In this document: piece after piece, positions 42,551 to 45,282 of the stretch
Layout of the letters: the number at the start of each line of letters is the position of its first letter
Numbering within the stretch: position 1 is the first letter of the stretch
Sequence record: NC_049822.1
Length of the DNA: 51,739 bases
Origin: Escherichia phage vB_EcoS_G29-2
Strand: one strand, 5' to 3'
Position numbers and translations under genes: made by a program
Notes under the pieces: generated by a model
Told to the model about the DNA's origin: nothing
What the model saw: the letters and a program-made list of their open reading frames with translations, nothing else
The model's database searches: none

Positions 42551-42648
42551 GGATTATTATCATGTGGCGTTTGTTACTTTTGCCCTTACCTGTTATGATG
42601 GCGATCTCTATTGTATATGTTGTCATAATGAGATAAGGAGAATTTTTG

Positions 42649-43764
42649 ATGAAGCAAATCAAAATCACAGATGAACAATTTATCAATGAGCGCAAGCAGG
42701 GAAAGACATATAAGCAGATAGCTAATGAGTATGGTATGAACGTTCGCAGCATTGAGCGACGCGCAGCGCGACTTGCAAAGCAAGGTAAAGTTACAACCAT
42801 CGGATCACCTGGCTTTGGCGTTACTGGAGAATCAAAGCTAATTGATAAAGATGGCAATGTGGTTATGACATGGATTAAGACAAGCAAGGACCGCGAGCAG
42901 TTAGAAGCATTAATGCAGGCCGCTATGGATGCATTTAGCGAAGAAGTTCCGCGACTTGATCCGCAACCAGAATCACAAAAGGATTATAGCGAGACGTTAT
43001 CACTGTATCCGATCTTTGACATGCACTTGGGCGCAATGGCGCATAAGCATGAATGCGGAGAGAATTGGGATACAGCAACAGCAGAGCGCGTAATGAATAA
43101 TTTCATTGATTATTCTATCCAGTGCGCGCCGGATAGCGAAAAAGCTGTTTTGCTGATTGGTGGCGATATGCTTCACAGTGACGGACTTGAAGCGGTTACA
43201 CCTGCAAGCGGTCACGTATTGGATCAAGATAGTCGATACGCAAAACTTGTTTATGTTGCCATCCGGTCAGTGCGTCGAGCAATCACAAAGCTGTTATCAA
43301 AACATAAAAACGTAGAGATTCAGATAATTGAAGGCAACCACGACCAAAGCGGCATGATCTGGTTGCGCGCAGCAATGGCGGCAGCATATGAGAATGAGCC
43401 GCGAGTGCATGTTGATGTGTCTCCGCGAGTGGTTCATCACACACAATATGGCAAAACATTCCTGGCATACCATCATGGGCACACTATCCGCAAGCCTGAA
43501 ACATTGCTCATGATGTGTGCGGCAGACTGGCGCGAAGACTTCGGAAATTCAAAAATGATGTATGCTCACGTAGGGCACTGGCATCATCAGACAGTAACTG
43601 AAACAAGCCTGGGCATTGTTGAAGTGCATAGCACTATGGCGGCAAAAGATGCATATGCGGCGCGCGGTGGATGGCGTTCTCGACGCCGTGCGGCTGTTAT
43701 TGTTTACGATAAAGAATACGGAGAGGTAGGGCGATTTATGCATTATCCAGAAATGGCTTATTGA
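42649..43764 (+). CDS. calcineurin-like metallophosphoesterase with N-terminal HTH domain
   Basis: motifs GGDMLHSDG, GNHDQ, GHWHH; N-terminal YKQIANEYGMNVRSIERRAARL; RBS AAGGAG. Confidence 0.65.
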   Translation: MKQIKITDEQFINERKQGKTYKQIANEYGMNVRSIERRAARLAKQGKVTTIGSPGFGVTGESKLIDKDGNVVMTWIKTSKDREQLEALMQAAMDAFSEEVPRLDPQPESQKDYSETLSLYPIFDMHLGAMAHKHECGENWDTATAERVMNNFIDYSIQCAPDSEKAVLLIGGDMLHSDGLEAVTPASGHVLDQDSRYAKLVYVAIRSVRRAITKLLSKHKNVEIQIIEGNHDQSGMIWLRAAMAAAYENEPRVHVDVSPRVVHHTQYGKTFLAYHHGHTIRKPETLLMMCAADWREDFGNSKMMYAHVGHWHHQTVTETSLGIVEVHSTMAAKDAYAARGGWRSRRRAAVIVYDKEYGEVGRFMHYPEMAY

Positions 43765-43807
43765 ACTTTTAATCATTAAAATATAAATATAAATCATAAA
43801 TTTAATT

Positions 43808-43838
43808 GGGCGTGGCATTTTGCTTCGCCCTTTTTTTA
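43808..43838 (+). terminator. rho-independent terminator before lysis cassette
   Basis: GGGCG-loop-CGCCC + TTTTTTTATT. Confidence 0.65.
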
Positions 43839-43910
43839 TTCCTTTTTGTGCGTTCAATGGTTAGGATACAATCAATTAATTGTTGACTTTTATCTACAGG
43901 AGATCTAATC

Positions 43911-44126
43911 ATGAAAGATTTTTTAAACGCTGCAACTTCCGGCACTGGCGGAGCGTCAATCACTGGCGCGGTAACTGGTCAAACAACTATTGCAATAGCC
44001 AGCTTCGTTTTGATGGCTGCATTTGGTATGTGGGGCGCTTATCTTCGCTGGCGTGATAGTAAGGCGCTACGTGACGCGCTTGAATGCGGTGATATTAAGA
44101 AAGCTATTGAGATCAGAGGTAAATAA
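43911..44126 (+). CDS. holin
   Basis: 71 aa, single [22 protein letters not shown], charged C-terminus, directly upstream of endolysin. Confidence 0.7.
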
Positions 44127-44614
44127 TGAGTATAAAACAAAGAGTGACCGCTGCGGCTTTTGGCGTTGCTCTTGCCCTTACTTCTCCGCTACTGGAGGAA
44201 ATAGAAGGAGTAAAACATAAGCCGTACAAAGATATTGCTGGGGTATGGACGGTTTGCGCCGGAATAACTGGCCCTGACGTAATACAAGGCAAAACGTACA
44301 CACAAAGAGAGTGCGATGCACTACTGGCGAAGCATATCAAGATCGCAAAGGATGAAGTTGATAAGCGTGTAAAGGTTGACATTCCTGATACAATGCGCGC
44401 AGCAATGTATTCATTCACATACAATGCTGGAACTGGAGCTTTTAGAAATTCAACCATGCTTAAGCTGATTAATAACGGTCGTTATATGGAAGCGTGCGAT
44501 CAGTTATGGATATGGACAAAATACACCAATCCAAAAACAGGAAAGAAAGAAACGTCTAAAGGACTGCGCAACCGCCGCGCGGTGGAATTTAAATATTGCA
44601 TTAAGGATCTGTAA
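44126..44614 (+). CDS. SAR endolysin (lysozyme, E-8-D-5-T catalytic triad)
   Basis: weakly hydrophobic N-terminal signal-anchor [15 protein letters not shown] followed by E-x8-D-x5-T. Confidence 0.75.
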
Positions 44615-44616
44615 TT

Positions 44617-45015
44617 ATGCGAAAGTTATCAATAATCGCTATCGCTGTTATTTTGTCTGGATGTTCAAGCGTTACGCCACTGACCGGATTAATCGGTAGT
44701 AAGCCGGAAATCACAGCACAGGCAGGAGCGGAGAACGTAAAGCAGACCGTTGGCGTTACCGCAAAGCAGGACACCAGCACAAAACAGGAAACTACAATAA
44801 AGGAATCTGCGGTTGATAAGGTGGACACTTCCAGCAAGAAGGATTTCACTACGTCAACCATTCAGGCCAATACCATCAAGGCTGATAAAATCCAGGTTGT
44901 GCAGGGTGAGCAAAGGAAGTGGTACGATCCCATAATCTATTGCGCTGCAATTTTTAGCGGTCTTTTGTCAATGCTTTACTTTTCCTACCGCAAAGGCAAC
45001 AAAAAGGAGGCTTAA
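44617..45015 (+). CDS. unimolecular spanin (lipoprotein with C-terminal TM)
   Basis: lipobox LSG-C plus C-terminal TM IIYCAAIFSGLLSMLYF; arrangement as in T1 gp11. Confidence 0.7.
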   Translation: MRKLSIIAIAVILSGCSSVTPLTGLIGSKPEITAQAGAENVKQTVGVTAKQDTSTKQETTIKESAVDKVDTSSKKDFTTSTIQANTIKADKIQVVQGEQRKWYDPIIYCAAIFSGLLSMLYFSYRKGNKKEA

Positions 45016-45030
45016 CGCCTCCTTTGTTTT
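45004..45030. terminator. bidirectional terminator at convergence of lysis cassette and leftward block
   Basis: AGGAGGC-TTAA-CGCCTCCT + TTGTTTT. Confidence 0.7.
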
Positions 45031-45250
45031 ATAGTGCATCCATCAAATCTTGAAAGCTGTTTCCGCTATAATCATTCTCGACAAGAATGTAAGCACCTTT
45101 CTTCTTTATATCCCATAACATTTCATTGTATTCGTAACGATTTATTTCAAACGTGCTGCCATCTTCTCTTGTCGCAGTTCCTTTGTCGTTGAAAACATCA
45201 AAAGTTACATTGATGATTTTTGTCTCTTTCTTTGTTACTTTGATAGCCAT
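45029..45250 (-). CDS. hypothetical protein
   Basis: RBS GAGGA; downstream of minus-strand motif promoter 45283-45328. Confidence 0.5.
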   Translation of the reverse strand: MAIKVTKKETKIINVTFDVFNDKGTATREDGSTFEINRYEYNEMLWDIKKKGAYILVENDYSGNSFQDLMDAL

Positions 45251-45282
45251 TTTTAAAATCCTCATATTCGTTCCGATGAAAC

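Follow-up and report, generated by a model that had tools for sequence, protein, structure and literature searches.

The lysis cassette of Escherichia phage vB_EcoS_G29-2: very probably the standard holin, endolysin and unimolecular spanin module of a Hanrivervirus-type, T1-like phage

Organization of the lysis cassette

Positions 43911-45015 of the genome of Escherichia phage vB_EcoS_G29-2 (G29-2; NC_049822.1) very probably represent the standard three-gene module by which a T1-like coliphage of the Hanrivervirus type (Drexlerviridae) lyses its host. All coordinates refer to the window, i.e. the whole stretch of 51,739 nucleotides that was analysed. Based on the ORF listing, the region is filled by three consecutive, closely packed ORFs on the plus strand. 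The first of these (43911-44126) encodes a 71-aa holin of the T1 gp13 type, a predicted pinholin, followed by a 162-aa endolysin (44126-44614), which is a T4-lysozyme-family muramidase of the R21 type with an N-terminal signal-anchor-release (SAR)-like segment, and a 132-aa unimolecular spanin (u-spanin) of the T1 gp11 family (44617-45015). The holin and endolysin genes overlap by 1 nt (TAATG), the endolysin and spanin genes are separated by 2 nt, and Shine-Dalgarno-like motifs are found upstream of the holin (AGGAG), endolysin (AGAGG) and spanin (AAGGA) starts. The family matches of all three proteins lie well above chance level (phrog_2877 for the holin, PF00959 and phrog_7 for the endolysin, phrog_1804 for the spanin). 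The initial annotation had described this region as a compact cassette of a holin, a SAR endolysin and a unimolecular spanin, which is supported by the three ORFs at these positions, by their family matches and by the synteny with T1. Gene order, motifs, homology and near-identity to annotated phages can be read directly from the sequence. Since identical or near-identical copies have already been annotated in published phage genomes, this description is correct but ordinary, and the cassette itself is already known.

The cassette is delimited by terminator structures on both sides. Upstream, a plus-strand gene (42646-43764) encodes a DNA repair exonuclease/phosphoesterase of 372 aa (phrog_704, E 3e-151). 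Its product shows weak helix-turn-helix-like matches at the N-terminus, and the gene start in the egaa annotation is located slightly farther upstream (1131 nt vs 1119 nt here). The exonuclease gene is closed by an intrinsic-terminator-like hairpin with a T-run on the plus strand (43808..43838), which marks the 5' boundary of the cassette. It folds as GGGCG.GGCA...UGCU.CGCCC followed by UUUUUUU, with an energy of -14.6 kcal/mol (z = -4.6), and none of 200 shuffled sequences folds equally well. In T1, a rho-independent terminator is likewise annotated behind gene 16, the homologous exonuclease gene.

At the other end, a terminator hairpin (45003..45025) overlaps the spanin stop codon. This bidirectional structure consists of a perfect 9-bp palindromic stem with a T-run on the plus strand and another on the minus strand (the complement of an A-run), with energies of -14.7 and -16.1 kcal/mol and z-scores of -3.2 and -4.5, respectively. 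It is common to the spanin gene and to a convergent minus-strand ORF of unknown function (45029-45265; 78 aa, phrog_10679, E 1e-40), of which relatives annotate a shorter form of 222 nt. In T1, a terminator is annotated at the corresponding position after the spanin gene. A sigma-70 promoter scan yielded no convincing site 5' of the holin gene. As promoter-like sites were just as numerous as expected from shuffled sequences and the lone one near the holin overlaps the holin start codon, no promoter was assigned.

Relationship to other phages

Over positions 43700-45100, the DNA is 98.9% identical to that of the Escherichia phages egaa and herni, 97.9% to KarlJaspers (Bas06, BASEL) and 94.8% to Shigella phage pSf-1, all belonging to the genus Hanrivervirus (subfamily Tempevirinae, family Drexlerviridae). 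This relationship extends to the genome as a whole. Window positions 1-25000 and 26740-51739 match Hanrivervirus genomes with about 95-96% identity, the best records covering 87-98% of these stretches, and the DNA identity of the window to egaa, herni, SFP17 and slyngel lies at 95-99%. The window represents a nearly complete genome of the Hanrivervirus type (Drexlerviridae). About 20 records named 'Campylobacter phage', with C. jejuni as host, also match the cassette at 95-97% identity and match the rest of the window too, for example MG065638.1 (A15a) and MG065669.1 (A123). For Hanrivervirus-type genomes, a C. jejuni host label seems doubtful.

Gene order, gene sizes and junctions of the cassette are the same in egaa, herni, KarlJaspers and pSf-1 as in G29-2. 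The cassette proteins are identical or nearly so in the annotated genomes of egaa, herni and KarlJaspers, with a single amino-acid difference from egaa at endolysin residue 129. The records of these relatives already label the genes as holin, endolysin and Rz-like spanin, u-spanin or RzlA. Within the cassette, the spanin of pSf-1 (L006 1218-1634, gp13) departs somewhat from that of G29-2. It has 138 instead of 132 aa due to a 6-residue C-terminal extension (…KKELNASFVL); the final residue and the stop codon differ from G29-2 and the extension runs into the terminator hairpin.

The holin

The first protein of the cassette (43911-44126) has a full-length match to the PHROG holin family phrog_2877 (E 1.2e-35), and is 59% identical to T1 gp13 and 100% identical to the egaa holin. 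A Pfam search with this protein returned DUF3262 only, below threshold, and an NCBIfam search gave sub-threshold matches only, for the holin as well as for the spanin. Holin homologues P0121-P0146 all bear the precomputed Pfam tag PF27028.1, which the local Pfam-A search did not report for the G29-2 holin. The metagenomic homologue P0143 (79 aa) carries an in-frame duplication of 7-8 residues (DSKVLRE/DSKALRE), located in the cytoplasmic tail directly past the membrane helix.

The 71-aa protein is a holin, and its topology can be read in two ways. A hydropathy scan reveals one clear, strongly hydrophobic membrane segment (residues 25-45), followed by a basic C-terminal tail. This is the only segment above the hydropathy threshold; residues 7-23 (17 aa) consist for 88% of Gly, Ala, Ser and Thr and reach a mean hydropathy of 0.56. 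The AlphaFold model, built from 26 sequences (mean pLDDT 68), displays one long helix (18-58), no hairpin and a low-confidence N-terminus. Moreover, the GenBank record of T1 notes a 'single transmembrane domain' for the T1 holin. These observations point to a single-pass holin (N-out, C-in), which would produce large, non-specific holes and release the SAR endolysin through the resulting depolarisation. However, the holins of T1 and TLS are described as class II pinholins with two transmembrane domains (TMDs), both by Kongari et al. 2018 (PMC6139136), who class the T1-family holins in this way, and in the TLS re-annotation paper. In the alignment of 17 holin sequences, T9, G13, G14, A20, T22 and Q24 are invariant. 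Conservation of the Gly/Ala/Ser/Thr-rich N-terminus suggests a function, and this region resembles the SAR-like TMD1 of pinholins, as present in the pinholin S21 68.

Weighing both sides, we regard a single-pass holin forming large holes as rather unlikely. A slightly lower probability still is given to the combined proposal that the T1-type 71-aa holin is single-pass (N-out/C-in), has a conserved Gly/Ala/Ser/Thr-rich periplasmic N-terminus and is paired with a SAR endolysin whose anchor, at 17 residues, is unusually short. If true, a single-pass holin with a short-anchor SAR endolysin would represent a topology class experimentally uncharacterised in such a pairing, and the single-pass reading would cover the whole T1-like clade and not the G29-2 window specifically. 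Single-pass or not, the protein stays a holin and the reading of the cassette is unaltered. Because the sources disagree on topology, the designation 'holin' is accepted here, while 'pinholin' is considered likely.

The endolysin

The second gene (44126-44614) encodes a protein which matches Phage_lysozyme in Pfam (PF00959, E 3e-37) and phrog_7 (E 1.1e-53) and is 64% identical to T1 gp12. The pattern E-x8-D-x5-T occurs exactly once in this protein, as E27, D36 and T42. The triad reported from the sequence earlier is hence present, and it aligns with the catalytic region of 3HDE and 3HDF. Together with 4ZPU, these two are the closest solved structures (E 3e-40). The alignment with 3HDE (52% identity over 151 columns) begins at residue 3 of the endolysin and consequently includes the SAR segment. 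That with 4ZPU is full-length, while 3HDF, a 140-residue form, aligns from endolysin residue 25 only.

At the N-terminus, V7-L23 forms an uncharged stretch of 17 aa, of which 53% is Gly, Ala, Ser or Thr, with a mean Kyte-Doolittle hydropathy of 1.84. It is preceded by K4 and R6 and followed by E24 and E25. As this stretch is present and aligns with the SAR domain of R21 (3HDE), the description of the N-terminus as SAR-like is upheld at the level of sequence. The SAR-like segment of the endolysin is a real sequence feature, from which SAR behaviour is predicted by comparison with R21, where it is experimentally established. The endolysin has no Cys in residues 1-43, its four Cys being located at 44, 63, 124 and 158. 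Since none precedes residue 44, a disulfide-based control in the style of P1 Lyz does not apply. The P1 Lyz structures 1XJU and 1XJT match the endolysin weakly (E about 1e-4).

Alternatively, the N-terminus might be a cleavable Sec signal peptide or a permanent membrane anchor instead of a SAR domain, so that the enzyme would be secreted constitutively and controlled in another way. The uncharged stretch is indeed short (17 aa) and resembles a signal peptide in its build, with the basic residues K4 and R6, a hydrophobic core and a polar TSP. On the other hand, it aligns with the established SAR domain of R21 as part of a full-length match, and its content of Gly, Ala, Ser and Thr is typical of SAR segments. 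A search of the endolysin N-terminus revealed no good signal peptidase I site: Ala15-Leu16-Ala17 is positioned within the hydrophobic core, and a cut after Ser20 would put Pro21 at +1. A proline at +1 blocks cleavage by signal peptidase. The literature can be cited on both sides. The SAR behaviour of T1-type enzymes is given there as a prediction, with the TLS re-annotation paper terming T1 gp12 'a predicted SAR endolysin', and PMC8385771 offers a precedent in T4 RI, whose presumed SAR domain was reassigned as a cleavable signal peptide. Kongari et al. 2018 (PMC6139136), however, place spanins of the T1gp11 family in cassettes with a pinholin and a SAR endolysin, and class T1-family cassettes accordingly. 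We consider a signal peptide or permanent anchor improbable, and the enzyme is further treated as a predicted SAR endolysin.

Residue 129 of the endolysin (window 44510-44512) is Ile in G29-2 and Arg in egaa, KarlJaspers, pSf-1 and T1, as well as at the aligned position of R21. This Ile may reflect either a genuine polymorphism or an error in sequencing.

The spanin

The third gene (44617-45015) is the last one of the cassette, directly following the endolysin gene and being followed by the terminator. Its product gives a full-length match to the Rz-like spanins of phrog_1804 (E 1.6e-49), whereas a Pfam search with it matched nothing. To T1 gp11, the prototype unimolecular spanin, it shows 47% identity over 127 of its 132 aa, and it is 90% identical to pSf-1 gp13 and 100% identical to the egaa spanin. 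According to PMC6139136, membership of the T1gp11 family calls for an identity of 40% or more across 40% or more of the length. With 47% over 127 residues exceeding these values, the G29-2 spanin fits this family.

Both membrane anchors of a unimolecular spanin can be recognized. The N-terminus, MRKLSIIAIAVILSGC, contains the basic residues R2 and K3, a hydrophobic core and the lipobox LSGC at 13-16, found as a match to a PROSITE-style lipoprotein pattern. The lipobox Cys, Cys16, does not vary in either of two homologue alignments (25 and 37 sequences) and is followed by Ser-Ser at +2 and +3. Under the Lol pathway rule, a lipidated Cys without Asp at +2 leads to outer-membrane sorting. As the +2 residue is Ser and not Asp, the spanin is predicted to be sorted to the outer membrane. 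At the other end, residues 105-124 form an uncharged stretch with a mean hydropathy of 1.51, with WYDP before it and the tail RKGNKKEA after it, and such a C-terminal hydrophobic segment occurs in every homologue of the 25- and 37-sequence alignments. In the AlphaFold model (37 sequences, mean pLDDT 54), only the signal helix and a helix at 105-127 are formed, with no strands. The latter helix is the best-predicted part, with block-mean pLDDT values of 73-86 over most of it, compared to values below 50 for residues 31-77. Pattern match, hydropathy and AlphaFold thus agree with the earlier description of this protein as a lipoprotein with a C-terminal transmembrane helix.

The periplasmic region in between (17-104) comprises 88 residues, is rich in Thr, Lys, Ser, Val and Gln and has no Cys; the two Cys of the protein are C16 in the lipobox and C109 within the membrane helix. 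As reported by Kongari et al. 2018 (PMC6139136), u-spanins have no periplasmic Cys and the periplasmic domain of the T1gp11 family is beta-rich and not a coiled-coil. For the pSf-1 spanin, the published prediction is about 28% beta and 6% helix (supplements, PMC6139136). Considering the 47% identity, the presence of both anchors on one chain and the lack of periplasmic Cys, the unimolecular architecture of T1 gp11, as initially proposed, is found here as well. An all-frame scan of 43800-45100 detected no second plus-strand ORF with a lipobox; therefore, the gene is not a disguised two-component spanin. An antisense ORF (44601-44861) with a VVSC lipobox and an acidic N-terminus was judged to be a chance match.

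Another possible reading of the third gene is that it encodes a Cor-like superinfection-exclusion protein or a generic lipoprotein. Residues 1-63 match phrog_1119, the Cor superinfection exclusion protein (E 1.8e-05), and several GenBank records call the homologue just 'lipoprotein'. This match is weak and confined to the signal peptide and N-terminal region, whereas the match to the spanins of phrog_1804 covers the full length and is 44 orders of magnitude stronger. Furthermore, the defining C-terminal membrane helix of u-spanins is present in the protein, its gene occupies the last place in a lysis cassette, and T1 gp11, to which it is homologous, is able to complement lambda defective in RzRz1 (Kongari et al. 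2018, PMC6139136). A protein other than a spanin is accordingly very improbable, and the Cor-like exclusion reading was dropped, the phrog_1119 match being weak and N-terminal only. The third gene is hence retained as a spanin gene.

In the initial annotation, this spanin was taken as strong support for a T1-like phage. The T1-like conclusion stands, owing to the 95-96% whole-genome identity to Hanrivervirus genomes, but the spanin alone is not diagnostic of a T1-like phage, since T7-like podophages of Klebsiella encode homologues as well. With the spanin as query, tblastn matched 1089 phage records, including homologues in Klebsiella phages of 42-44 kb with 43% identity over residues 1-98. 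One of these is found in Klebsiella phage RCIP0072 (43 kb), where the u-spanin homologue (L005 2001-2405) is located a short distance downstream of the gene for a T7-type terminase large subunit, with two small hypothetical genes between them, and does not adjoin any annotated holin or endolysin. Judging from this homologue near a T7-type terminase, the gp11-type spanin family spans both siphophages and podophages. SpaninDB also includes KP34 among the u-spanin phages (supplements, PMC6139136).

Proposed lysis pathway

Based on the homologues R21, S21 68, lambda Rz/Rz1 and T1 gp11, from which we infer SAR release, pinhole formation, lipidation and membrane fusion, lysis by G29-2 might proceed as follows. 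The 71-aa holin would accumulate in the inner membrane and trigger at a set time, collapsing the proton-motive force; most likely it would act as a pinholin, forming small holes. During the latent period, the endolysin would be exported via Sec, with its weakly hydrophobic SAR segment keeping the inactive enzyme in the inner membrane. Depolarisation would then free the endolysin into the periplasm, where it may refold in the way R21 of phage 21 does and cleave the peptidoglycan through its putative active site formed by Glu27, Asp36 and Thr42. The spanin, for its part, would receive its lipid at Cys16 and be directed to the outer membrane while its C-terminal helix remains in the inner membrane, so that one chain would cross the periplasm through the mesh of the cell wall. 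Once the wall is degraded, the spanins would be free to diffuse within the membrane plane and to oligomerise, and could then fuse the inner with the outer membrane or disrupt the latter, by which the virions would be let out.

Regarding its significance, the cassette confirms a Hanrivervirus-type, T1-like phage with the likely route of pinholin, SAR endolysin and u-spanin, and adds little beyond a correct annotation. Several deposited phage genomes already contain the same proteins with annotation, and the spanin of the clade is included in a published spanin database, in which pSf-1 is listed as a u-spanin phage (supplements, PMC6139136). The family-wide questions concern how a beta-rich single-chain spanin would bring about membrane fusion and the true topology of the T1-type holin; the G29-2 copy adds nothing new to these.

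Comparison with known lysis systems

The closest of the well-known systems is that of T1, whose genes 13, 12 and 11 have the same order as the holin, endolysin and spanin genes of G29-2. The protein identities amount to 59%, 64% and 47%, respectively, and the proteins are nearly equal in length (71/71, 162/162 and 132/133 aa, with 132 for the G29-2 spanin). T1 gp11 and the G29-2 spanin share the LSGC lipobox, the WYDP before the C-terminal helix and the KKEA tail, whereas the periplasmic domain has diverged from that of T1 gp11, with two small gaps. The synteny extends beyond the cassette and comprises the exonuclease, holin, endolysin, spanin, terminator, convergent genes and helicase. Only T1 has an HNH endonuclease gene (gene 15) and gene 14 between exonuclease and holin. 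The two also differ in subfamily, T1 being a member of the Tunavirinae and the G29-2 type belonging to the Tempevirinae.

The G29-2 endolysin shares the T4-lysozyme fold family with R21 (3HDE, inactive form, and 3HDF, active form) and with E. coli DLP12 RrrD (4ZPU). They are alike in the Glu-8-Asp-5-Thr spacing, the Gly/Ala-rich SAR or SAR-like segment and the lack of a regulatory Cys. Compared to R21, the G29-2 endolysin has a linker shortened by 6 residues between the SAR-like segment and the catalytic Glu, a 6-residue insertion near the C-terminus and a hydrophobic stretch of 17 aa versus about 20 or more. In contrast to P1 Lyz, the endolysin has no Cys inside the SAR-like segment that would free a caged catalytic Cys.

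Finally, the spanin and lambda Rz/Rz1 presumably do the same job, i.e. disruption of the outer membrane as the last step of lysis, and both are encoded at the end of their cassette. Unlike lambda Rz/Rz1, the G29-2 spanin is one polypeptide with a predicted outer-membrane lipid anchor and a predicted inner-membrane helix. It has no embedded out-of-frame lipoprotein ORF, no periplasmic Cys and no detectable sequence similarity to the lambda proteins, and it shares its single-chain design with T1 gp11.
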